A stretch of 64,000 bases of DNA, taken from an uncultured bacterium (GTDB taxonomy: Bacteria; Actinomycetota; Thermoleophilia; Solirubrobacterales; 70-9). Below are positions 2,464 through 55,352 of this stretch, piece by piece. The position numbers were made by a program, and so were the translations under genes. The DNA is taken from positions 333,347 to 397,346 of the forward strand of contig CAWDLT010000009.1 of the NCBI GenBank assembly GCA_963803305.1, written 5' to 3'. Under the pieces are notes generated by a model. That model saw nothing but the letters and a program-made list of their open reading frames with translations, searched no databases and had not been told where the DNA came from. Position 1 is the stretch's first letter; each line of letters begins with the position of its first letter.

Positions 2464-3747
2464 CTACTCGGCCGACGAGGAGGAAGCAGGGCCCGGTTGC
2501 TGGCGCAGAAGCGCCGCGGTGGTCTGCTCGAGGACCCTGCGCCAGGCCGACAGCCGCTCCTCCTCGCGCTCAACCTGATCGAGCACATGGCGGACGCGGC
2601 GGGCCGAGATCTCGATTCCGTGGCGCTCGGCGATCGACTTGTAGCGCTCGTAGTCGCGCGCCAGCTTCAGCGTGACCGACTCGAACCCGTGCTTGGCGAT
2701 CTCGAGCCGGCCGCTGTAATCGAGGATCGAGGTCCCGAACATGACCTCGTCGTCGAGCTCGGGCTCGATCAGGATGATGTCGACGCCGGGGTAGCGCTGC
2801 TCCCAGTACTCGACCGCCAGGTGGAGGCGCTCGTGTGAGAGGAGCCGGAACGCCTGGTTGCCGATCGCGGTGAAGCCCATGTCGGATACGCGCCGGGCGC
2901 GGTTGCCGGTGATCGTCGGGATGCGCTTCCGGAAGTCGTTCACGTACGGGACCATGGGATTGATCACGACGATGAACTTGGCGCCGTGCTCGACGGCGAC
3001 GTCAACGTTGGTGGTCGAGCGGATGCCCCCGTCGATGTACTCACGGTCATCGATCTGCACCGGCTCGTAGACCATCGGCAGGGCGCCCGACGCTGCGACC
3101 GCGGTCGAGATCGGCACGTCGGCCCACTCCTCCTCGCCGAGCACGACCCGCTCCGTCGTGTCGAGGTCGGTGGCGGTCAGGTAGAGCTCGTGCTCGAGCA
3201 GCCGGAAGTCGTTCGTGCGATCGGGATCGGACAGCACCTCGGCCACGTACCGCTCGATCCCGGCGCCCGTGTAGATCCCGGCCGGAAGCCCGGTTGCGAG
3301 GCCCGTCGCGATGTCGACCGCCGAGAGCTCCCCGAGATGGCTGACCACTTCCCGCGCCACCCCGGCGACCCGGAGGGGGAAGGTGACCGACTTTCGAAGA
3401 AAACCTCGGTAGTTGGGTCGCAGCAGGGTGCCGAGCGAGATGTCGGAGAGGGGCGACGGGAGGTCGTTGTTGATCACCCGCATCATCTCCTCGGGGGTGA
3501 TGCCGTTCGAGACCATCCCGGCGACGAACGCGCCGGCGCTCGTGCCCACGTAGACGTCGAACTCGTTGATCGTGCTGTTGACGGCGAGCAGGTCGAGCGC
3601 CCGAAGCGCCCCGATCTCGTAAACGCCGCCGGTGAACCCTCCGCCGCCCAGAACGAGCGCGGTCTTGGAAATGCGCTTACGACCTCTTCGGCTCCGAGAT
3701 CCGCGCGACTGGGTGCGCGGGGTCTCGAGCTCGACGACCTTCCCCAT
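2464..3747 (-). CDS. Patatin-like phospholipase family protein
   Basis: Oxyanion GGGGFTGG, nucleophile elbow GTSAG and the catalytic Asp in the YIDGG motif. Confidence 0.85.
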   Translation of the reverse strand: MGKVVELETPRTQSRGSRSRRGRKRISKTALVLGGGGFTGGVYEIGALRALDLLAVNSTINEFDVYVGTSAGAFVAGMVSNGITPEEMMRVINNDLPSPLSDISLGTLLRPNYRGFLRKSVTFPLRVAGVAREVVSHLGELSAVDIATGLATGLPAGIYTGAGIERYVAEVLSDPDRTNDFRLLEHELYLTATDLDTTERVVLGEEEWADVPISTAVAASGALPMVYEPVQIDDREYIDGGIRSTTNVDVAVEHGAKFIVVINPMVPYVNDFRKRIPTITGNRARRVSDMGFTAIGNQAFRLLSHERLHLAVEYWEQRYPGVDIILIEPELDDEVMFGTSILDYSGRLEIAKHGFESVTLKLARDYERYKSIAERHGIEISARRVRHVLDQVEREEERLSAWRRVLEQTTAALLRQQPGPASSSSAE

Positions 3748-5056
3748 GGCTGTGGGGCATTATGACCGGATCCAAGCTCGATCTGATCCCTCACGGCGTC
3801 GAAGATGGCTGGCGACAGGCCTGGCCGCCGTTGCCGGCCTGCTGGCGGCAGCGCCGGCGCCGGCCGGCGCATCGGTCTCCCGGGGTCACCTGGAGCGGAG
3901 CCTGGCCAAGCAAATGCGCCACGTGGGCGGCGCCAGCGGCGCCTTCGTCACCGACCTCGATGCCCGACGCCACCGGACGCTGTTCAGCCGGTCATCGCGC
4001 CGCCACCGCCCGCTTGCCTCCAACACGAAGCTGTTCACGATGGCGGCGCTTCTCGACCGGTTCGGCCCCCGAGCCACCTTCAAGACGAGGCTCTACGCGC
4101 GGCCGACGCGCCGCGCCGGGCGGCACACGCTGCGAGCGAGCGTGGTGGTGGTCGGGGCCGGCGACCCGGCGCTCGGCAGGCGGTCCTTCGCGCAGCGCTT
4201 CGGAGTGCCCCTGACGCCGTTGGGCAGGCTCGCCGGCGACGTTCGAAGGTCCGGAATCAAGCGGATCACGGGCAAGGTCCGCGTCGACGACTCGATCTTC
4301 GACCGCCGACGCGGCATCCCGACCAGCGGGGTCGACGCCTCGGGCGAGCTCGGGCCGCTGTCGGGGCTCTCCTATGACTCCGGGATCGTCCACGGCCACT
4401 ATGCGGGGAACCCGGAGCTCGTCGCCGCCCGGGCCCTGAAGAACAAGCTGCGAAGAGCCGGAGTCAGGGTCGAGGGAGGGATCGGCCGGGCCGAACTCCC
4501 GGCGCGGGTGCTCCGCAAGCGCGCGCTGGCAAGCGTCAGCTCACCCTCGGTGGCGAGCTTGATGGCGGCGACGCTCAGGCCATCGAACAACTTCTTCGCC
4601 GAGATGCTCCTGAAGCGGCTGGCGGCCGGCCGCACCGGTCCCAGGGGCACGACCCGACGCGGCGCGGCCAAGGTCAGGAAGTTCGCCCGTCACGTCGGCA
4701 CCAGCGTCAAGCTGGAGAATGGCTCCGGGCTCTCGCGCGCCGACCGGGCCTCCCCGCGCCAGGTCGTCCGGCTCCTCGCCGCGATGAGCCGGCGACGGGG
4801 AGCCGGCGCCTACCGCCGGGGGCTCCCACTGGCCGGGGAGCAGGGAACCGTCGCCGACCGCATGAACGGCACGGCGGCCGACGGACGCTGCCGCACCAAG
4901 ACCGGCACCCTGACCGCGGTCAGCGCCCTTTCCGGCTACTGCCACGCGGGACACGGCACGGTCGCCTTCTCGATCCTGATGGGCACCCCGAACCTCGACG
5001 CCGCCCGAAACGCCCAGGACAGGATGGCCGCCCTGATCGCCCGCTACCGAAGATGA
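3746..5056 (+). CDS. dacB: D-alanyl-D-alanine carboxypeptidase/endopeptidase (PBP4, peptidase S13 family)
   Basis: SNTK (SxxK), ENGSGLS and KTGTL motifs, with the N-terminal signal-like segment RRRRWLATGLAAVAGLLAAAPAPAGA. The start is uncertain: the ATG at 3746 overlaps the divergent patatin start. Confidence 0.8.
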   Translation: MAVGHYDRIQARSDPSRRRRWLATGLAAVAGLLAAAPAPAGASVSRGHLERSLAKQMRHVGGASGAFVTDLDARRHRTLFSRSSRRHRPLASNTKLFTMAALLDRFGPRATFKTRLYARPTRRAGRHTLRASVVVVGAGDPALGRRSFAQRFGVPLTPLGRLAGDVRRSGIKRITGKVRVDDSIFDRRRGIPTSGVDASGELGPLSGLSYDSGIVHGHYAGNPELVAARALKNKLRRAGVRVEGGIGRAELPARVLRKRALASVSSPSVASLMAATLRPSNNFFAEMLLKRLAAGRTGPRGTTRRGAAKVRKFARHVGTSVKLENGSGLSRADRASPRQVVRLLAAMSRRRGAGAYRRGLPLAGEQGTVADRMNGTAADGRCRTKTGTLTAVSALSGYCHAGHGTVAFSILMGTPNLDAARNAQDRMAALIARYRR

Positions 5057-5217
5057 CTCCGCCGAAAGCGTCGCCTCCGGCTCCGGAATGACGCCGCCGG
5101 CTGCTCGCCGGAACAACTCCGCCGGAAGCCTCGCCTACGGCTACGTTTCCGGCGGGTTGCAACGCGTTACCGACCGGCAGGACGTAGCCGCCTGCACCGC
5201 GACTTCGTCGCTAGCCC
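5057..5217. repeat. Non-coding copy (1.5 units) of the family-D ~100-nt repeat
   Basis: 5117-5217 aligns end to end with the copy inside rpsQ (24578-24677). It shares the first ~41 nt with 5 mismatches and an identical last 20 nt, cgcgacttcgtcgctagccc. It lies between the convergent dacB and ligA genes. Confidence 0.7.
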
Positions 5218-5370
5218 GGACGTGGGTCGTCTGGTGAATGCATGCCATTGACTAATCGACCCACGCCGTTACGACGGCATGCCTTACTCCCTACCCAGCC
5301 CCACCACCACCGTCGCGAGCCACCGACACCACGATGTCGGCGATTCGCGATGGCGCCGCTCCTCGGGTCG

Positions 5371-8235
<2,865 letters not shown>

Positions 8236-9665: not shown

Positions 9666-11043
9666 CTACGGAGCCGTCTTCCACAGCTTCTCGCCGTGGG
9701 TCTGATCCTGGTCGGTGAAGAAGAACACCGAGCGGCCGATCCTGGTCAGGTTGTAGGGAGACGAACCAACCGTGCCGGGCTTGACGTCGTCGACGAGCTT
9801 CGTTCCCGCGCCGGTGCCGTTCGAGATCCAAGGCTCATTGCCGTGTTCGCCGTCATTCGCCGTGAAGACGACCCTGCGACCGACCGCCGTCAGATTCCAC
9901 GGGTCGGAGCTGACCCCGCGGCGGATGTTCCTGACGCGTTTCGTTCCCCTGCGGGTTCCATCGGACACCCAGAGCTCGCGATCCCTGGCGCGGTCACGCG
10001 CGGTGAAGAAGAGCCGATCACCCGCTTCGGTGAGGTTGAAGGGCTTCGAGCTCCCCTCCCCGGGAACGATGTCCCTGACGACCTTCGTTCCGGCGCTGGT
10101 GCCGTCGGACTTCCAGAGCTCGCGACCGCGGGGTCCGGTATACGCGCTGAAGAACAGGGCGTGGCCGACGGTCGTGAGGTCGTACGGATCGGAGCTCTTG
10201 ACGCCCGGCTTGACGTCCTTGACGACCTTCGTTCCCGCCGCCGTCCCGTTGGTCTTCCAGAGCTCGACGCCATGCGCATCGTCTCTGGCAGTGAAGAAGA
10301 AGGTGCCGGCGACGTCGGTCCACCAGCCGCCCCTGAAGTGGTCCACGACCTTGGTCGTCCCCTGCTCCGTGCCGTCGCTCCTCCACAGCTGGCGTCCGGG
10401 AGCGTCACCGATCGTGAAGAAGAGCGTGCCGCCGATGTTGCGCATTCCGATCAGATACGAGGACGCGGCGCCAGGCGTGATGTCCTTGACGAGCTTCGTC
10501 CCCTGCTCGGTGCCGTCCGATCTCCAGAGCTCGGCGCCATGAACGGGGTCGTAGGCATCGAAATACACCCTCTGGCCGACCCGCTCCATCGGATCACAGC
10601 AGCTGCTTTGGGGACCCGGGTTGATGTCCTTGACGAGCCGCGTGCCCGCCCGCGTGCCGTCCGACCTCCAGAGCTCGCGGCCATGGACGCCGTCGTCGGC
10701 GGAGAACGAGAGCGAGCCCCCTGGCCTCGACGAGACTGTCGGGGTCGGAGCCCTCGGGCCCGGGGCGGATGTCCTTGAGCAGCTTCGTGCCCGGGGCGGT
10801 GCCGTCCGACCTCCAGAGCTCCGAACCGTGGTCCGGATCCCAGACCCGGAAGAGAAGGGTCCCGTCGACATCGGTCAAGTAGTCCGCGGGTCCGCCCTGT
10901 GGCCCCCAGGTGAAGTCCTTGACCAGCTTTGCCGTGATCGCGGCGGACGCTGAGGGGACGAGCAGGAGCGAGGCGACCAGGACCAGGAAAGGACCGAGCC
11001 AACGAACCACACTGCTCGTCTGCGTTGCAGCAAGACCCTTCAC
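9666..11043 (-). pseudogene. Secreted ELWxxDGT-repeat protein interrupted by a single frameshift
   Basis: ORF 10594-11043 supplies the signal peptide and first repeat. ORF 9666-10871 supplies 7 further [EQ]LWxS[DN]GTxxGT-type repeats and a partial one. The frames switch at the C5 run 10717-10721, and removing one base restores ...DSLVEARGSLSFSADDGVHGRELW... Confidence 0.7.
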
Positions 11044-13909: not shown

Positions 13910-14320
13910 CTAGACCCTCCGTCGCTTCCGAGGCCGGCAGCCGTTGTGCGCCTGCGGCGTGACGTCCTTGACGGTGGTCACCTGAAGCCCTGCGGCCTGG
14001 AGCGAGCGGATCGCCGTGTCGCGCCCCGAGCCAGCGCCCTTTGCATGCACCTCGACCCGCTCGAGCCCATGCTCCATCCCCTTTCGGGCCGCGGAATCGG
14101 CGGTCACCTGAGCGGCAAACGGGGTCGACTTTCGGGACCCCTTGAATCCGGCCGAGCCGGCGGACTCCCAGCAGACGACCGCGCCGTCCGTGTCGGTGAT
14201 GGTCACGATCGTGTTGTTGAAGCTGGTCTTGATGTGGGCGATCCCATAGGTGATGTTCTTCTTCACCCGACGGCGAGTGCGGCCGGCGCCTCGAGCCGAT
14301 CCCTTCTTGGGCTGGGGCAT
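13910..14320 (-). CDS. rpsK: 30S ribosomal protein S11
   Basis: Contains [18 protein letters not shown]...[14 protein letters not shown]. Confidence 0.95.
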
Positions 14321-14416
14321 CAGTGAATCACCGACTGCACACGCTGCTCGCGGCGCCGTCGTGTAGGCCTGGTGAATGCGAAAAGCTTTTGGTTGCGGCG
14401 CCGCTCCATCACGTTT
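14321..14416 (-). repeat. Family-B intergenic hairpin element (copy 1, rpsM-rpsK spacer)
   Basis: The plus strand reads atcaccgactgcacacgctgctcgcggcgccg...cggcgccgc. The motifs are shared with 14801-14901 and 22193-22369. GCGGCGCCG/CGGCGCCGC form a 9-bp stem. Confidence 0.7.
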
Positions 14417-14800
14417 CTACTTCGGCGCCGGCGCCTTGCGCCGACCGGCGACGCTCATCCGGCTCGGGCCCTTGCGGGTTCTCGCGTTCGTCTTCGTGCG
14501 CTGGCCTCGAACCGGCAGGCCGCGGCGGTGACGGTGCCCTCTATAGGCCCCGATCTCGGAGAGCCGCTTGATGTTCTGGGAGCGTTCGCGGCGAAGGTCG
14601 CCCTCGACCTCGCGGGACTCGACCGCCTCCCGCAGCTTGACGACCTCGTCGTCGGTCAGATCCTTGACGTAGGTGTTCGGGTCGACGCCCACGTCGGTGA
14701 CGATCTTGCGGGCGGTCGAGTCGCCGATCCCGTGGACGTACGTCAGCCCCACCTCGATGCGCTTGTTGACCGGGATGTTGACCCCCGCTATGCGTGCCAC
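14417..14800 (-). CDS. rpsM: 30S ribosomal protein S13
   Basis: [25 protein letters not shown], with a GTG start preceded by GGTGAT. Confidence 0.95.
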
Positions 14801-14901
14801 CTAGATCACCACCAGCACATGCTGCTCGCGGCGCCGTTGTATGCGCGCCCGATCGATTCGAAAAGTCCCTGTTTGCGGCACCGCGCCAAACATCATCCGC
14901 C
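14801..14901 (-). repeat. Family-B intergenic hairpin element (copy 2, rpmJ-rpsM spacer)
   Basis: The plus strand reads atcaccaccagcacatgctgctcgcggcgccg...cggcaccgcg. The 10-bp stem contains a G-U pair only when read as minus-strand RNA. Confidence 0.7.
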
Positions 14902-18007: not shown

Positions 18008-19279
18008 TTACTTCAGGAAGCCCTCGTAGTTGCGCATCATCAGCTGGGCCTCCAGCTGCTTCACCGTATCGAGCGCCACGCCGATCACGATCAGGATGGA
18101 GGTGCCGCCGAAGAAGAAGTTGGCCGATGTCTGGCTGATCAGGATGGTCGGCAGCGCCGCGACCGCGCCCAGATAGAGCGCCCCCGGGAACGTGAGCCTG
18201 GAGAGGATCCGATCCAGGTATTCGGCGGTAGGTCGTCCCGGTCTCACCCCAGGTATGAACCCCCCGTACTTCTTGAGGTTGTCGGCCTGGTCGACCGGGT
18301 TGAAGGTCACCGCCGTGTAGAAGTAGGTGAAGATGATGATGAAGAAGACCTCGCCCACCACGTAGGCCCACCCGTTCGGGCTGAAGAAGGCCGCGAAGTC
18401 AAGTGCCGCGGGCGTGTTCAGGAGTTGACCTATGGTCGGCGGGAAGGCCATGATCGAAGCGGCGAAGATGACGGGGATCACGCCGGCCATGTTGACCCTG
18501 AGCGGGAGGTAGGTGGACCCTCCGGTGGTCATCCGGCGACCGACGACGCGTTTCGCGTACTGGACGGGAATCCGCCGCTGGCCCTCTTGGACGAAGACGA
18601 TTCCTACGATCACGGCCAGCGCGATGAAGGGCATCATCACGACGAAGACCTGATCGGGGTTGGTCCACCACGCCTGAATGCCGTTCGGGATCCGCGACGC
18701 GATCGAGGCGAAGATCAGAAGCGAGATCCCGTTGCCGATCCCCCGCTGGGTGATCAGCTCGCCGAGCCACATCAGGAGCGTCGTGCCGGCGGTAAGCGAG
18801 ATCACGATCAAGAACAGCTTCGGGGCGGTCAGCGTCCCCACCACGCTGGTCCCGGCGGCGTTCTGGAACGACTGGAACAGGAACACGTAGCCGAGCGACT
18901 GGGCGAGCGCCAGCGCGACGGTCAGGTAGCGCGTGTACTGGGTGATCTTCTGCTGCCCGACCTCGCCCTCCTTCTGGAGCCGCTCCAGCGAGGGCACCAC
19001 CACGGTCAGCAGCTGGAGGATGATCGAGGCGGTGATGTAGGGCATGATCCCGAGCGCGAACAGGGACAGACGCGAGAGGCTTCCGCCGCTGAACAGGTTG
19101 AGGAAGCCGAGGATCGAGTTGCCCGAGAAGTTCTGCTCGATCTCCTTGACGGTGTTGATGTCGACGCCGGGTGAGGGGATGTACGCCCCGAGCCGGTAGA
19201 GCAGGAGCATCGCCGCCGTGAAGGCCAGCTTCTTTCGGATCTCGCCGACCCGGAAGGAGTTGAGGATCGTCTGGAGCAC
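18008..19279 (-). CDS. secY: Preprotein translocase subunit SecY
   Basis: 423 aa and polytopic. It starts MLQTILNSFRVGEIRKKLAFT and contains GIMPYITASII. Confidence 0.95.
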   Translation of the reverse strand: MLQTILNSFRVGEIRKKLAFTAAMLLLYRLGAYIPSPGVDINTVKEIEQNFSGNSILGFLNLFSGGSLSRLSLFALGIMPYITASIILQLLTVVVPSLERLQKEGEVGQQKITQYTRYLTVALALAQSLGYVFLFQSFQNAAGTSVVGTLTAPKLFLIVISLTAGTTLLMWLGELITQRGIGNGISLLIFASIASRIPNGIQAWWTNPDQVFVVMMPFIALAVIVGIVFVQEGQRRIPVQYAKRVVGRRMTTGGSTYLPLRVNMAGVIPVIFAASIMAFPPTIGQLLNTPAALDFAAFFSPNGWAYVVGEVFFIIIFTYFYTAVTFNPVDQADNLKKYGGFIPGVRPGRPTAEYLDRILSRLTFPGALYLGAVAALPTILISQTSANFFFGGTSILIVIGVALDTVKQLEAQLMMRNYEGFLK

Positions 19280-19926
19280 TAGGAAACACCTCCGCCGGAG
19301 GCCTCGCCTTCGGCTGCGTCTCCGGCGGGTTCGGGCTCCGGCGTGGCGGCAGGCACCTCCGCATCTACCGCGGCTTTGCCGCTAGCGCCATCGCGTCCAC
19401 CTTGGGCCGTCTTGGCAGCGGGCTCGCTGCTCTGATCGATGAGCTCGCAGCTGCCGCCGGCTTTTTCGATCTTGTCCTTGGCGGTGGCGCTGAAGGCATG
19501 GGCCTTGACGGTCAGCTTCTTGGTCAGGTCGCCCCTGGCCAGGATCTTGACCGGATGGCGGCGCTTGGCGAGCCCGGCCGCGCGCAGCGTCTCAAGGGTC
19601 ACCTCATCGCCGGCGGAGAACCGCTCCTCGAGGTCGGAGACATTGACCGGCTGGGTGTGGGTCCGGAAGGGCTCGAACGGCATCGACATCTTCTTGTGCG
19701 GGCCGCGAAGCTTCCTGGTCCGCATGTGGATCGGGTTCTGGCCGCCCTCGTAGCCGGGCTTTCTCTTGTTGCCCGACCGGGCGCCGGCGCCCTTGTGCCC
19801 GCGGCCGGAGGTCTTTCCGAGCCCGGATCCGCCGCCGCGGCCGCGGCGCCTTCGGGGATGCCGCGAGCCCGGCTTGGGGCGGATCGTGTGGAGCCCGACC
19901 TCTTCGGGATCGAGGCGGGGAGTCAT
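19279..19926 (-). CDS. rplO: 50S ribosomal protein L15 with a ~65-aa acidic C-terminal extension
   Basis: The L15 core is GRGHKGAGARSGNKRKPGYEGGQNP. The tail ends [30 protein letters not shown] and is encoded by the family-D repeat. Confidence 0.9.
   Translation of the reverse strand: MTPRLDPEEVGLHTIRPKPGSRHPRRRRGRGGGSGLGKTSGRGHKGAGARSGNKRKPGYEGGQNPIHMRTRKLRGPHKKMSMPFEPFRTHTQPVNVSDLEERFSAGDEVTLETLRAAGLAKRRHPVKILARGDLTKKLTVKAHAFSATAKDKIEKAGGSCELIDQSSEPAAKTAQGGRDGASGKAAVDAEVPAATPEPEPAGDAAEGEASGGGVS
19290..19389 (-). repeat. Family-D ~100-nt repeat, copy inside the rplO 3-prime end
   Basis: The 60-nt core 19300-19359 is identical to 20134-20193 and 24588-24647. It contains the inverted repeat CCGCCGGAG-N19-CTCCGGCGG. 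Confidence 0.85.
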
Positions 19927-20103: not shown

Positions 20104-20772
20104 CTAGGCAACGGAACCCACATCTCCGCCGGAGGCCTCGCCTTCGGCTGCGTCTCCGGCGGGTTCGGGCTCCGGCGTGGCGGCAGGCACCTCGGCATCT
20201 ACCGCGGCTTCGCCGCTAGCGCCGGCGGCATTACCTTCGGTGGCCTTGTCGTTCTTCTCCAGGCCTAGGACCTGGGCGACGCTCAGGCCGCGGAGCTTGG
20301 CGACCTGCTCGGGGCGGCGCAGGCTGGTCAGGCCCTCCATCGTGGCCTTCACGAGGTTGATCGGATTCTGGGTTCCGATGCTCTTCGTGAGGACGTCTCG
20401 GATCCCGGCCAGCTCGAGCACGGCGCGAACGCCGCCGCCGGCGATCACGCCGGTTCCCGGACTGGCCGGCCGAAGGACCACGTGGCCGGCGCCGAAGCGC
20501 CCGATGATCCGGTGCGGGATCGTCTGGCCGTACATGGGAACGCGAACCAGGCTCTTGCGGGCGTTCTCGACCGCCTTCTGGATTGCCAGGGGGACCTCGC
20601 GCGCCTTGCCGTAGCCAATTCCGACCACGGAGCTCTCATCGCCGACCGCGACCAGGGCGGTGAAGGAGAAGCGCCTGCCTCCCTTGACGACCTTGGCCAC
20701 GCGGTTGATCTCGATCACTCGCTCCTGGAGGTCGAGTCCCTGCGGGCTGACTGTCTCGATGTCGTGGTTCAT
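20104..20772 (-). CDS. rpsE: 30S ribosomal protein S5 with a ~55-aa C-terminal extension
   Basis: The S5 core is [24 protein letters not shown]. The tail is [34 protein letters not shown]. Confidence 0.9.
20124..20223 (-). repeat. Family-D ~100-nt repeat, copy inside the rpsE 3-prime end
   Basis: It differs from the rplO copy at about 2 of 100 positions by eye. Confidence 0.85.
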
Positions 20773-21790: not shown

Positions 21791-22186
21791 TCACCATACG
21801 TAGGCGACCACCTCGCCTCCCACTCCCTGCCGTCGAGCGTCATGCCCGGTCATCACCCCGGTCGAGGTGCTCAGGATCGCGGTCCCCATGCCGCCCATCA
21901 CGCGGGGGATCTCCCCGTGAGCCGCGTAGCGGCGGCGACCCGGACGCGAGATCCGCTCCAGGCCACTGATCACCGATCGGCGGCCGTCGGTGTACTTGAG
22001 CTTGATCTGGATCACCTCGCCGACCGCGCCAGGCTCGATCGCGAAGCCGCTGATGTAGCCCTGCTGATCGAGGATGCGGGTGATCTCCTTTTTGAGGCGA
22101 GAGGCGGGGATCTCCACATCGGAGTGCTGCGCGGCGATCGCGTTTCGAACCCGCGTCAGGTAGTCAGAGATTGGATCGGTGAGCAT
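21791..22186 (-). CDS. rpsH: 30S ribosomal protein S8
   Basis: Starts [16 protein letters not shown]. The ATG at 22186 lies 6 nt after GGTGAT, whereas the TTG at 22192 used by the ORF track has no spacing to the SD. Confidence 0.9.
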
Positions 22187-22192
22187 CGTCAA

Positions 22193-22369
22193 ATCACCAA
22201 CTGCACATGCTGGTCGCGGCGCCGTTGCGTACGCACATCGCCTCTTTCATAGTCTCTGGTTTCGGCACCGCGCAACATCTCCAGCTACACATGCTGCTCG
22301 CGGCGCCGTTGCGTACGCATGTCGCCTCTATCGTGGTTTCTGGTTGCGGCACCGCGCATCAATCCTTGT
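22193..22369 (-). repeat. Family-B intergenic hairpin element, two tandem copies (rpsN-rpsH spacer)
   Basis: Each of 22193-22280 and 22281-22369 contains cacatgctg(g/c)tcgcggcgccgttgcgtacgca...ggtt(t/g)cggcaccgcgca. Confidence 0.75.
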
Positions 22370-24126: not shown

Positions 24127-24911
24127 CGGGGCGCTCGCTCCAGGATCTCGACCAGCCGCCAGCGCTTGGTGCGCGAGATCGGCCGGCACTCGATCACTCG
24201 GACGACATCGCCCTCGCCCGCCTCGTTGCCCTCGTCGTGGGCACGCAGCCGGCTCGTACGTCGGACCACCTTCTCGTAAGTCGGGTGACGCCTGACGATC
24301 GCGATCTCGACCGTGATCGTCTTGTCGCCTCCGGTCGAGACGACGCTGCCCTGCCGGACCTTGCGCGCTCCCGCCTCCCGCTCGGCGGGCGCCGTTCCGG
24401 TACCCGGCTCGCCACGCTTTGAGCGCTTGGCTGCGCGATGGCGCCTGCGGCCCTCGGCCGCCACCCCCCGGCGCTCGATCCGCTCCGCCGCCCGCTCCTC
24501 GGAGGAGCGGGATGGGCGTGCGGGACCGGACGCGCGCGATCGGCGGCGCTTTCGAAGCTCCTTCGGGGAGAGCACAACTCCGCCCGAGGCCTCGCCTTCG
24601 GCTGCGTCTCCGGCGGGTTCGGGCTCCGGCGTGGCGGCAGGCACCTCCGCAGCTTCCGCGACTTCGTCGCTAGCCCCATCGGCTTCACCTGCGGCCGCCT
24701 CTTCCGCGGCGGGCACCTCCGAAGCTACTGCGGCTTCGTCGCTGGCCTCGGCGGGTTCACCTTCGGCCGCCTCGTCTGCGGCGGGCTCCTCGGCCTCTGA
24801 CTCGGAGACGGGGCTGTCCTCCGGGGTCTCGTCGGCCTTCGGGGCGTCCTCCTCGGTGGCCTCTGGCTCCACGGTCTCTTCCTGTCCCTGCTTCTCTTCC
24901 TCAGCCATCAC
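24123..24911 (-). CDS. rpsQ: 30S ribosomal protein S17 with a ~180-aa N-terminal low-complexity extension
   Basis: The C-terminal 80 aa ([31 protein letters not shown]...RWRLVEILE) are S17. The upstream frame is open back to GTG 24911 / ATG 24908, which overlaps the rpmC stop (TGATG). Confidence 0.85.
24578..24677 (-). repeat. Family-D ~100-nt repeat, copy inside the rpsQ N-terminal extension
   Basis: It has the same 60-nt core and encodes [23 protein letters not shown]. Flanking sequence to ~24800 holds further partial D-like units. Confidence 0.85.
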
Positions 24912-38572: not shown

Positions 38573-38726
38573 CCCTACCCAGCCGCCGAGCGCGGGCGCG
38601 ACGCCAACGCGTGGCGCCCCCTACCCAGCCGCCGAGCGCGGGCGCGACGCCAACGCGTGGCGCCCCCTACCCAGCCGCCGAGCGCGGGGGCGACGCCAAC
38701 GCGTGGCGCCCCCTACCCAGCCGCCG
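38573..38726. repeat. 46-nt tandem repeat, 3 full copies plus a 16-nt partial copy
   Basis: The unit ccctacccagccgccgagcgcgggcgcgacgccaacgcgtggcgcc occurs at 38573, 38619 and 38665 (one mismatch) and partially at 38711. It lies 75 nt beyond the rpoC stop. Confidence 0.85.
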
Positions 38727-47008: not shown

Positions 47009-47800
47009 TTACTCCTCGCTCTTCGTTTCCTCTTGGACATCTTCGCCGGGGGCTTCGTTCTCGGCGGGTTCGGCCTCCGACGCGGCGGCAGGCTGGGCCT
47101 CCTGCTCCGCCTCATCGTCGTCAGCCTCAGCGGACTCTTCATCGGGCTCACCGTCGGCCGGCCCCTCCGTGGTTGCCGGCGACTCATCGGCCGACGCGGC
47201 GGCCGCGCCGTCTTCGGCCCCGGCGGGCTCCTCCTCGGCGGCGGGCTCTTCCGCGGCGGGCTCTTCCTCGGCGACCCCGCCCCCGACCAGACCCTTCTCC
47301 TGGATCTGGCCCAGCGCGACCGCCAACCCGGAGACCATCGACGCGAGGCCCCGCACGAGCCCGGTGATCGGGCTCGCCGCGATCCCGACGAGCTGGCCGC
47401 GCAGAACGTCGAGGCCGGGGAGGCGGGCGATCGCCAGGAACTCGTCGGGCCCCAGCGGAGCTCCGTCCATGATCCCGCCCTTGTACTCGAGGATCTCGTG
47501 CTGCCTGCCGAAGGTCGAGATCGCCTTCGCCGCGGTCACGGCGTCGCCCTTGACGAAGGTCAGCGCCGTGGGGCCCTCCAGCAGCGGATCGAGCTCGGCG
47601 GTGCCGACCCGCTCGACGGCGCGCTTGGCGAGCCGGTTCTTGACTACTCGGAAGGTCGCGTCGGCCTCGGAGAGCTGAGCCCGAAGCTCGGCGGCCTGGG
47701 GAACGCTGATGCCCCGATAGTCGACCGCGAAGATCGCGCTCGCCTCACCGAGGCGATCGGCGATCTCGTCGACGAGGACTGATTTCTGCTCTTTGTCCAT
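47009..47800 (-). CDS. rplJ: 50S ribosomal protein L10 with a ~85-aa acidic C-terminal extension
   Basis: An L10 core (MDKEQKSVLVDEIADRL...) followed by ...EEPAAEEPAAEEEPAGAEDG...AEADDDEAEQEAQPAAASEAEPAENEAPGEDVQEETKSEE. Confidence 0.9.
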   Translation of the reverse strand: MDKEQKSVLVDEIADRLGEASAIFAVDYRGISVPQAAELRAQLSEADATFRVVKNRLAKRAVERVGTAELDPLLEGPTALTFVKGDAVTAAKAISTFGRQHEILEYKGGIMDGAPLGPDEFLAIARLPGLDVLRGQLVGIAASPITGLVRGLASMVSGLAVALGQIQEKGLVGGGVAEEEPAAEEPAAEEEPAGAEDGAAAASADESPATTEGPADGEPDEESAEADDDEAEQEAQPAAASEAEPAENEAPGEDVQEETKSEE

Positions 47801-49186: not shown

Positions 49187-49465
49187 CTTACTTCTGAATC
49201 TCTTGCGGATGCCTCCGGCATCCTTACATGCTGCTTTCGGGGCTAAAGCCCCTCATCGGGACCAAGAAGATCTTTCAGATTCTCCTGAATACCTTGCGGA
49301 TGCCTCCGGCATCCTTACATGCTGCTTTCGGGGCTAAAGCCCCTCATCGGGACCAAGAAGATCTTTCAGATTCTCCTGAATACCTTGCGGATGCCTCCGG
49401 CATCCTTACATGCTGCTTTCGGGGCTAAAGCCCCTCATCGGGACCAAGAAGATCTTTCAGATCTT
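49187..49465 (-). repeat. Family-C perfect tandem repeat, ~3 x 91 nt, between nusG and rplK
   Basis: cttgcggatgcc recurs at 49202, 49293 and 49384, and the copies look identical by eye. Each unit has the hairpins ggatgcc-tcc-ggcatcc and ggggct-aa-agcccc. The array abuts the nusG stop. Confidence 0.9.
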
Positions 49466-54146: not shown

Positions 54147-55352
54147 TTAGCCCAGATATCGGTAGACGACGAACTTCCCGCGGCCGTCGGCGGCCAGGAT
54201 CCGGTCGCGGGAGTCGATCACGGCTGCCTGGGCGCCGAGATAGCGCGAGAAGGTCCTCACCTTGCCGTTGCGAGAGAAGGATCGATCGGGCCTGCCGTCC
54301 TCCTTGTACCGGGCAAGCGCATAGTGGCTGGCGCAGCACCGGTTGCCGTGGGTGCCGCCGGCGGCGACGATCCGCCCGCGTGAATCGATGGCCACCGCAC
54401 TGGCGCGAGCGCCGTCTTGGCCGAAGGACGTCAGGACCTTGCCGTCGTTGGAGAACGACCGGTTACGGCTGCCGTCCGGCCGGTAGCGCGCCAGCGCGAA
54501 CATGGACCGGCCGTTTCGCTGGCCGAATCCGGCCGCCACGATCCGGTCCCGTGAGTCGATCGCCACAGCGCTGGCCTCGTCGTCGGCGCCGAATGTGGTG
54601 TCGGCCTTCCCGAAGTGGCCGAACGACTGGTCCAGGCGGCCATCTTCGGTGTAGCGGGCGAGCGCGAAGTCGCAGTTGACGAAGTCCTCATCGCACCTGC
54701 TGCCGACAGCGACGATCCGCCCACGGGAGTCGATCGCCACCGAGCTTGCGTAGTCGTTGCGCCCCCCGAAATCGGTCGTGAGCAGACCGGCATGGCCGAA
54801 CGACGGGTCGGGGCTGCCGTCGTCCATGTAGCGGGCGACCGCAAAGTCTTGGTTGGACCCTCCTGCGACGACGATCCTGCCATCGGAGTCAATTGCGAGG
54901 GAGCTGGCGGCGCGCGCGAGGCCGCTCGTCACCATGCCGCCGGTGCCGAACGATGGATCGAGGGCTCCGTTGGGCTCGTAGCGGACGATCCCACCGTTCC
55001 CGCCGACGATGATCCGTCCCTCGGAATCGATCGCAACCGAGCTGGCGCTGTCGCTGCCCCCGAGGTCAGTCGTCGCATAGCCGTCGCCCGAGAACGTGCG
55101 GTCGAGCCGACCATCCGTCTTCAGTCGAGCGAGCGCAAAGTCGCCCCTGAACGGCGAGTTGTCGCCGGCGACGACGATCCGCCCGCGCGAGTCGATCGCG
55201 AGGGCACGGGCCTCACAATGGCAATCGACGCCCGCCCTGACCTTCCCTCTGATGCCGAATGACCGGTCGAGGTCGCCCGGGGCAGCCTGTGTGAGACTCG
55301 GCGCGAGCAAGCAACCGAGAACGATGAGCACAAGAGCGGGAAGCCCCTTCAT
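54147..55352 (-). CDS. Secreted delta-60 repeat (beta-propeller-like) protein
   Basis: Signal MKGLPALVLIVLGCLLAPSLTQAAP and seven repeats of DG.LD.SFG..G-type. The ORF-track N-terminus (to 55526) runs over the tRNA-Thr gene and is rejected. Confidence 0.8.
   Translation of the reverse strand: MKGLPALVLIVLGCLLAPSLTQAAPGDLDRSFGIRGKVRAGVDCHCEARALAIDSRGRIVVAGDNSPFRGDFALARLKTDGRLDRTFSGDGYATTDLGGSDSASSVAIDSEGRIIVGGNGGIVRYEPNGALDPSFGTGGMVTSGLARAASSLAIDSDGRIVVAGGSNQDFAVARYMDDGSPDPSFGHAGLLTTDFGGRNDYASSVAIDSRGRIVAVGSRCDEDFVNCDFALARYTEDGRLDQSFGHFGKADTTFGADDEASAVAIDSRDRIVAAGFGQRNGRSMFALARYRPDGSRNRSFSNDGKVLTSFGQDGARASAVAIDSRGRIVAAGGTHGNRCCASHYALARYKEDGRPDRSFSRNGKVRTFSRYLGAQAAVIDSRDRILAADGRGKFVVYRYLG

Follow-up and report, generated by a model that had tools for sequence, protein, structure and literature searches.

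Palindromic repeats that are translated within housekeeping proteins are best known from Rickettsia, for whose palindromic elements (RPE) Ogata et al. 2000 is reportedly the source; in-frame copies of ERIC and of the Coxiella QMITE have been recorded as well. The RPE are dispersed, hairpin-forming repeats of ~100-150 bp that are found both between genes and in-frame within unrelated housekeeping genes (PMC10969869). The bacterial MITEs (Correia, ERIC, the Coxiella QMITE) are small sequences present in many copies that occasionally fuse in-frame with a host ORF and influence their neighbours (PMC10969869, PMC5896051), and the REP/BIME sequences with their RAYT (Y1 HUH) transposases are GC-rich palindromes at the 3' ends of genes, whose single-stranded DNA hairpins are thought to be recognised (PMC3733652). 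The repeat described here shows the behaviour known from Rickettsia in a free-living, high-G+C soil actinomycete lineage, and with much clearer covariation support. In the window (the whole stretch of 64,000 nt that was analysed), we consider it likely that a dispersed family of structured repeats, selfish and mobile or recently mobile, is represented at positions 5057-5224 by a single full non-coding copy and two end fragments. The element is apparently undescribed and resembles the RPE/REP kind; the literature on repeats in Solirubrobacterales or Thermoleophilia contained no description of it that we could find. It offers a second independent system for asking by what route such elements spread, why the surviving frames are only linker-like ones and how donated stop codons and extended tails reshape gene ends. 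The family has practical consequences as well: at its copies gene callers will extend or truncate genes and metagenome assemblers may break contigs, and a model of the family would improve the annotation of abundant uncultured soil bacteria.

With the RPE the family shares its many dispersed copies, a unit of the 100-150 bp class, conserved hairpins, in-frame occurrence in unrelated conserved genes (as predicted ORFs) and the lack of a recognised transposase, of terminal inverted repeats and of a target duplication. In-frame RPE always use the frame whose peptide is open and tolerated. The present family differs in its host (Actinomycetota rather than Alphaproteobacteria), in having most of its copies at gene ends with stop codons in both termini, and in its two separate GAA-looped hairpins with covariation and its tandem arrays of 3' fragments. 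To our knowledge, the family has no sequence similarity to the RPE; the likeness is one of kind, by description. Like REP/BIME, the copies lie at gene 3' ends, between convergent or tandem genes, and are often clustered. However, REPs are single, extragenic palindromes of 20-40 nt with a terminal GTAG/CGTC, whereas the present element is composite, 110-125 nt long and also intragenic; GTAG occurs in some of its copies, and then only within the hairpin 1 loop or following hairpin 2. Non-autonomous derivatives of IS200/IS605, known as palindrome-associated transposable elements, have subterminal hairpins, neither terminal inverted repeats nor a target duplication, and a conserved tetranucleotide by the left hairpin. 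The hairpins near both ends of our element, the absence of inverted termini or duplication and a CTAG by the left hairpin all recall this arrangement, but the CTAG, which is always 5' of hairpin 2, looks like an internal part of the element and not a flanking target, because the ~11 nt upstream of it are conserved too. In contrast to both of these systems, no partner transposase was matched: a tblastn search of 1.88 Mb with approximate IS608 TnpA and RAYT-like (Y1) probes, a weak test, gave no match. MIRUs are short actinobacterial repeats within operons, with tandem units of 46-101 bp, whose frame overlaps the upstream stop and the downstream start. Similar stop/start overlaps are found here at rplO-secY and rpsE-rpmD, and the tandem copy number varies, but the present element has two covarying hairpins; we know of no report of MIRUs inside the body of conserved proteins. 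Finally, the small size, high copy number and in-frame fusions are those of MITEs, although neither of the features that define MITEs, terminal inverted repeats and target-site duplications (those of a parent IS), was found here.

The full copy (5106-5224, minus strand) lies in the spacer between two convergent genes, a dacB-like D-Ala-D-Ala carboxypeptidase gene (3632-5056, plus strand; Pfam Peptidase_S13, E 3e-62) and ligA, encoding the NAD-dependent DNA ligase (at least positions 5371-7473, minus strand; Pfam DNA_ligase_aden, OB, HHH and BRCT, and the ORF list). A complete non-coding copy at this place had been claimed from the sequence alone, and two search methods agree on it: nhmmer puts it at 5112-5224 (92 bits) and the covariance model at 5106-5218 (104.5 bits, E 3e-20), with all of the modelled pairs standard. 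Its sense strand, as defined by the GAA hairpin loops, is the minus strand of the window, and it lies 147 nt downstream of the ligA stop codon (5371-5373) on the same strand; the interval is filled by a different insert (5225-5370, minus strand) that carries CCCTACCCAGCC at 5289-5300 (plus strand). The closest relative, L136, has this same insert sequence in the same place. Sequence reading, folds and covariation support both hairpins of the copy. Hairpin 1 (5115-5158; covariation in 121 copies) has the arms CCGCCGGAA at 5119-5127 and TTCCGGCGG at 5147-5155, an inner mini-hairpin GCC-TAC-GGC at 5133-5141 and a base extension AAC/GTT. Hairpin 2 (5199-5211) reads GCGAC-TTC-GTCGC on the plus and GCGAC-GAA-GTCGC on the minus strand, and is adjoined by the conserved CTAG at 5211-5214. 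The 106 nt from 5112 to 5217 fold at -46.8 kcal/mol (z -2.7) on the plus and at -51.7 kcal/mol (z -2.0) on the minus strand. Among the Rfam 15 families, only two tRNAs reach threshold over the whole window, and the sole match within 4950-5450 is a chance miRNA (E 3.2).

The last 20 nt of this copy, CGCGACTTCGTCGCTAGCCC, are identical to those of a copy in rpsQ, exactly as first reported: the two exact sites in the window are 5198-5217 and 24657-24676, and a third site at 20203 has three mismatches (sites with at most three mismatches are expected 0.04 times by chance). The further statement that the two copies share their ends and have diverged in the interior is also borne out, since 5112-5217 is 76% identical to the rpsQ copy, with ends alike and indels in the interior. 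In the family reading frame the copy at 5112 is interrupted by stop codons and a frame shift, and by its two extra nucleotides (+1 nt at TACGN and +1 nt at GYAACR) it is assigned to subfamily C. The adjacent stretch at 5057-5116 (minus strand), originally taken for a half copy, is indeed element sequence, but it is made up of two tandem partial units (~5057-5086 and ~5087-5116), as judged from sequence, relatives and alignment. Each corresponds to the 3' part of the element, namely the loop and 3' arm of hairpin 1 and the terminal GGAGTCAT; by reading, the first 30 nt match the element at 25 of 30 positions, and the whole stretch at 62%. Similar fragment arrays are found 3' of copies in the relatives L136, L129, L135, L004 and L008. 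The TGA stop codon of the dacB-like gene (5054-5056) is itself a part of the terminal motif of the outer fragment.

The repeat search of the window located copies at 5112, 19285, 20119 and 24573 and a weak one at 47043, and the covariance model gives four copies at 100-108 bits, beyond which there are only two weak coding matches. The three other strong copies, all on the minus strand and found by nhmmer as well, are in ribosomal protein genes. The first (19279-19407; covariance model 108 bits) constitutes the last ~40 codons of rplO, and its stop codon overlaps the start codon of secY; the second (20113-20240; 100 bits) is inside the C-terminal tail of rpsE and ends just before rpmD; and the third (24567-24694; 103.5 bits) is in-frame in an N-terminal extension of rpsQ, with a partial second copy beside it (24680-24767, minus strand; covariance model 22 bits). 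In the predicted translations these copies encode a 29-letter peptide stretch at the end of L15, in the tail of S5 and in the N-terminal extension of S17. An L10 ORF with an acidic C-terminal tail (47009-47800, minus strand) has a weak, diverged match in that tail (47030-47145, minus strand; nhmmer 33.5 bits, covariance model 31 bits, E 6e-5), which may be an old copy or a mere resemblance in composition. Within the window, the copies in rpsE and rplO share 91-96% identity with the one in rpsQ. With the copies at the same positions in L028, where the flanking genes are ~90% identical, they share only 81% and 74%, respectively. Because the copies within a genome are thus more alike than positional orthologues, their evolution appears to be concerted, which in these sequences points to gene conversion between copies in one genome, the copies overwriting each other. 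Over the two sister genomes L028 and L017, the same-position copies in rpsE and rplO are 74-86% identical.

With an nhmmer profile built from 30 copies, a census of 202 fetched loci plus the window recovered 194 copies (~1.5 Mb from some 20 related metagenome-assembled genomes). A degenerate pattern for hairpin 1 was found in 28 loci of about 15 Solirubrobacterales/Actinomycetota metagenome-assembled genomes, and one for hairpin 2 in more than 112 stretches among the matches listed from such genomes. On the sense strand, the unit of 110-126 nt starts with (AAGGTGG..)CCGYYSGGGCTAG, followed by hairpin 2 (GCGAC-GAA-GTCGC), a variable middle of ~40 nt with an invariant CCTGCC, hairpin 1 (CCCGCCGGAA..GCC-GAA-GGC..TTCCGGCGG) and then AGTTATTC. 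As defined by conservation, the ends are approximately CCGYYSGGGCTAG on the left and GGAGTTATTC on the right, and about a third of the copies have the extra AAGGTGG block on the left. A sub-lineage found in three different genomes shares an insertion of ~40 nt (..CAACCCGAGCAAGCTCGGATCACCGGTCGCCTTCGGCTCCC..) in the loop of hairpin 1 (L009 6101-6250, L039 6173-6318 and L031 2345-2492). The family seems, from the loci compared, to be restricted to one clade of uncultured Solirubrobacterales, because among 52 ligA loci the covariance model finds matches only in genomes whose LigA is at least 78% identical to that of the window, and because none of 76 more distant S5 loci contains the element. The family pattern gave no match in viral contigs. 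Searching proteins with the translated consensus gave no more than three tiny hypothetical ones, and did not reveal how widely the peptide is distributed.

The feature that had first drawn attention to the junction copy was a double change in the stem of hairpin 1, judged against the rpsQ copy. Both arms have changed and pairing is kept, but the perfect G-C stems (CCGCCGGAG/CTCCGGCGG) that make the CCGCCGGAA/TTCCGGCGG stem compensatory are those of the rplO and rpsE copies, the rpsQ stem (CCGCCCGAG) having one mispair. The direction of the change must also be reversed. At this pair 86 of the 121 aligned copies have AU, 10 have GC and 4 have GU, and since A-T is thus the family majority, it is the ribosomal copies that carry a minority, and not an ancestral, variant. 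To evaluate covariation in the family as a whole, 121 sense-strand copies were aligned with MAFFT, independently of any structure, and the 3' partners of 22 proposed pairs were shuffled 500 times. In the real alignment 91.3% of the cells are paired (81.1% in the shuffles) and 235 cells have double changes (76.7 in the shuffles); the covariation score is 0.259 as against 0.091, a value that 0 of the 500 shuffles attained, and sliding the partners by 1-3 columns lowers it to 0.02-0.06. Covariation and further non-coding copies, the two things that the original prediction asked for, are both present in the family. Hairpin 1 has at least six versions of its stem, all of which pair (GGAA/TTCC, GGAG/CTCC, GAAA/TTTC, GACA/TGTC, GGCGGC/GCCGCC and others), and its inner mini-hairpin occurs as GCC-GAA-GGC, GGC-GAA-GCC and CGC-GAA-GCG. 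Hairpin 2 has three variants, again all pairing (GCGAC/GTCGC, GGGAC/GTCCC and GCGGC/GCCGC), and these alter the peptide non-conservatively (SDEVA, RDEVP and SGEAA) while the pairing stays. The covariation is also present within the non-coding subfamily alone (17 copies). A structural constraint is therefore shown for the family, for whichever copies propagate, compensatory changes in the non-coding subfamily included, and not for the junction copy taken singly, which belongs to a different subfamily from the ribosomal copies. A third helix in the middle region was considered too, but it is plausible, by reading, only for subfamily D (CCTG-CCGGGT-CAGG) and has no support in C.

The best-supported account of these patterns places the maintenance of the hairpins with the copies that propagate. 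The structure concerned may be one of DNA or of RNA; a comparison of the strands over the core stems counts 21 G-U and 14 A-C pairs. Such similar counts are what a strand-symmetric process at the DNA level would give, and it is conceivable, though we do not favour it, that the compensatory pattern arose not by structural selection but by template switching in quasi-palindromes together with gene conversion of hairpin modules. The strong homogenisation within genomes would agree with this, as would the independent assortment of hairpin 1 types relative to the middle-region subfamilies. Because hairpin modules seem to recombine between copies in this way, the independent compensatory events must be fewer than the cell counts. 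Against template switching as the whole explanation are the single-step G-U intermediates (4 at the flagged pair and 26 at the stem base), the conservation of pairing in two hairpins of differing sequence, and loops that stay GAA. Template switching and gene conversion could nevertheless lie behind part of the compensatory pattern, and even this would still be a process at the nucleic-acid level that provides no return to a coding origin.

Copies are found in a wide range of places. These were classed by the codon-position G+C of their flanks and by open frames; the relatives are metagenome bins represented by stretches of 2-8 kb each, and since the loci were selected for their element content, the proportions that follow are rough. 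The intergenic copies are mostly at the ends of convergent or tandem genes, and only 8 of about 180 lie between divergent genes. Among genes on the antisense side, 31 of 56 stop between -6 and +5 nt from the element end, by way of the TGA/TAA of TGAATAA or an abutting TAG, and on the sense side the TAG of GCTAGC is the stop codon of 17 of 85 genes. In-frame sense copies inside genes number 16 by context class. For six of them Pfam supports the host gene, with an ORF that in predicted translation runs through the copy: an E1/E2 2-oxoglutarate dehydrogenase (OdhA-like) has its copy between its two lipoyl domains, a UvrD-like helicase between UvrD-helicase and UvrD_C, and EngA between its two GTPase domains; in Lhr the copy is inside Helicase_C, in FO synthase it is in the linker that joins the CofG and CofH halves, and in the sixth case it is ahead of NuoE. 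The subfamilies are unequal in this respect: subfamily C (26 copies in 21 loci) and subfamily D (30 copies) have no in-frame member, 0 of 56 together, as against 14 of 76 in the other subfamilies. That the element exists independently of ribosomal coding sequence, as had been argued from the junction copy, is amply confirmed by 194 copies in many unrelated contexts, 26 of them in a non-coding subfamily of their own. The companion idea, a later exaptation as protein tails, has become doubtful. Long acidic Ala/Glu/Pro tails of S5 are found at nearly all of 80 Solirubrobacterales loci, in only four of which is the element present. Because such tails occur without it, the element would seem, on these comparisons, to have entered pre-existing tails and linkers tolerant of insertion, and not to have created the tails. 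Across the order (rpsE loci L202-L281), the S5 C-terminal tail is 30-200 aa long, acidic, Ala/Glu/Pro-rich and very variable, regardless of the repeat.

The concentration at gene ends raises the question of whether the non-coding copies have a function as 3'-end RNA elements, acting as terminators that lack a U-tract or, in the way proposed for REP, protecting transcripts from 3' exonucleases, with hairpins that the host keeps by selection at each locus; the junction copy would then serve both the ligA and the dacB transcripts. In 31 of 56 cases the hairpin begins 0-6 nt past the upstream stop codon; this position, the paucity of copies between divergent genes and the GC-rich stems (-47 to -52 kcal/mol) would suit such a role. 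So would the lack of any other recognisable terminator at the convergent junction, no terminator-like or promoter-like site having been found at 4700-5700. Yet there is no terminator call for the copy itself and no T/U run 3' of the hairpin, which is followed by GGGTTG on one strand and by AGTTGTT on the other. The orientation relative to the upstream gene is mixed (~30 sense versus ~39 antisense tandem contexts), the same hairpins are found in the middle of essential genes and inside the spc ribosomal operon, where termination would be harmful, and in L140 and L187 the junction works without the element. The stop codons built into the element ends, moreover, explain the proximity to stops without any function. 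We therefore think a 3'-end RNA role rather improbable as the explanation of the non-coding copies; it is possible that such a role coexists with a mobile origin.

For the dispersal of the family, the most instructive locus is the ligA-dacB junction itself, which was compared in 16 relatives. In L140 and L187 it is empty, with one CTAG shared by the two overlapping stop codons. The element directly follows the TAG of ligA in L138, L144, L137, L149 and L145, where it belongs to different subfamilies; L136 has three tandem copies plus fragments 3' of the same 147-nt insert as in the window; and the junctions of the remaining relatives contain unrelated inserts. The filled state is scattered patchily over a LigA neighbour-joining tree, implying at least 4 gains or 6 losses, and gene conversion or loss, rather than new insertions, could account for a part of this; polymorphism within a species was not seen. 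Because of the empty and filled sites, the different subfamilies at one junction and the tandem arrays, a mobile or at least dispersing nucleic-acid element is the best reading of these alignments, and to this extent the preference first expressed has been strengthened. The target-site duplications that were to be sought at the copy ends are not there: no flank is repeated consistently in 111 copies. Terminal inverted repeats are also lacking, the outermost ends (..GGGCTAG and GTTATTC) being unrelated, and the sole inverted repeat is a short subterminal one of 7-9 nt (CCGCCGG with CCGGCGG). A CTAG is found 5-9 nt past the right end in 12 of the 111 copies, ~40 times the background, which is a lead on target choice and not a rule. 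This enrichment, together with the CTAG of the empty site, was the reason for considering a duplication of CTAG or TA (IS5/IS630-type), but it was rejected as a rule, the left CTAG being inside a conserved block and most right flanks having no CTAG. In the whole window CTAG occurs 29 times as compared with 185 expected from base composition, a depletion of about six-fold, and 6 of the 29 are in or abut copies. An autonomous version was sought as 5' and 3' parts separated by 0.15-5 kb, and no such locus was found in the 202 loci plus the window.

Taken as selfish DNA, the family would spread, or would have spread, within one clade, and selection would filter the copies to gene ends and to linker-like in-frame positions. 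Gene 3' ends would accumulate copies that bring ready-made stops, the TAG in GCTAGC on one strand and the TGA/TAA in TGAATAA on the other. Inside genes a copy could survive only in its sole stop-free frame, for which a linker-like peptide rich in Ala, Pro and Glu is predicted; because the surviving frame encodes such a peptide, copies would be restricted to disordered tails and inter-domain linkers. The convergent ligA/dacB junction would be a recurrent landing site, at which the copy provides the stop codon of dacB. The hairpins might be kept because the spreading machinery recognises them, the candidates being a single-strand DNA transposase of the HUH/Y1 type or a step at the RNA level. Apart from the donated stop codon, the junction copy is probably neutral, and its GC-rich hairpins may stabilise or end the two convergent transcripts. 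A bolder version of this scheme, which we regard as a long shot, is an element still active by an unrecognised hairpin-dependent route, homing to stop codons or CTAG at gene ends and writing flexible linkers into essential proteins, S5, L15 and S17 included, with its copies kept alike by gene conversion. The GAA-looped mini-hairpins, which we take to be of the very stable d(GCGAAGC) type, would in that case be a recognition signal in single-stranded DNA.

Two explanations of the junction stretch that involve protein coding fare much worse. It is very improbable that it is a pseudogene fragment, derived by duplication and decay from the coding sequence of a ribosomal-protein tail, as its 76% identity and identical 20-mer with the rpsQ copy and its family frame broken by stops might at first suggest. 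The +1-nt variant recurs in other genomes, in 26 non-coding copies at 21 loci; at the orthologous junction in relatives, the element directly follows ligA; and the majority of the family members are outside ribosomal genes. Because subfamily C is non-coding in all 26 copies, the junction copy is, by its subfamily assignment, a member of a separate non-coding lineage and not a decayed ribosomal copy. A small protein, read from an ATG ORF of 49 codons that spans the copy (5088-5237, plus strand), or an extension of a neighbouring gene, has still less to recommend it: the ORF has no Pfam match, open frames are common in DNA of 68% G+C, the flanks have no codon-position G+C periodicity (0.78/0.62/0.60 on the ligA side and only the dacB antisense pattern on the other), and dacB and ligA end at conserved positions.

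The window contains several other repeats. A second family, marked by CCCTACCCAGCC / GGCTGGGTAGG, fills 5225-5370 and occurs four times in a 46-nt tandem array at 38573-38726. In L139, L141 and L143 this family is found downstream of ligA, at the ligA-dacB junction, as inserts of ~170 nt with inverted GGGCTGGGTAG..CTACCCAGCCC ends, which look MITE-like. At 49191-49463 there are three head-to-tail units of 91 nt, 96-100% identical, with the GC-rich inverted repeats GGATGCCTCCGGCATCC and GGGGCTAAAGCCCC; no Rfam family matched them at threshold in the search of the whole window. A 52-nt repeat (..ATCACC.ACTGCACAYGCTGCTCGCGGCGCCGT..) at 14317-14368, 14795-14846, 22183-22234 and 22267-22318, two copies of which are just upstream of rpsH, could be another dispersed element or a leader motif. 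Finally, diverged tandem repeats at 9773-10863 and 54187-55219, 60-79% identical and with periods of ~144 nt and ~171 nt, resemble repeated protein domains read on the minus strand.
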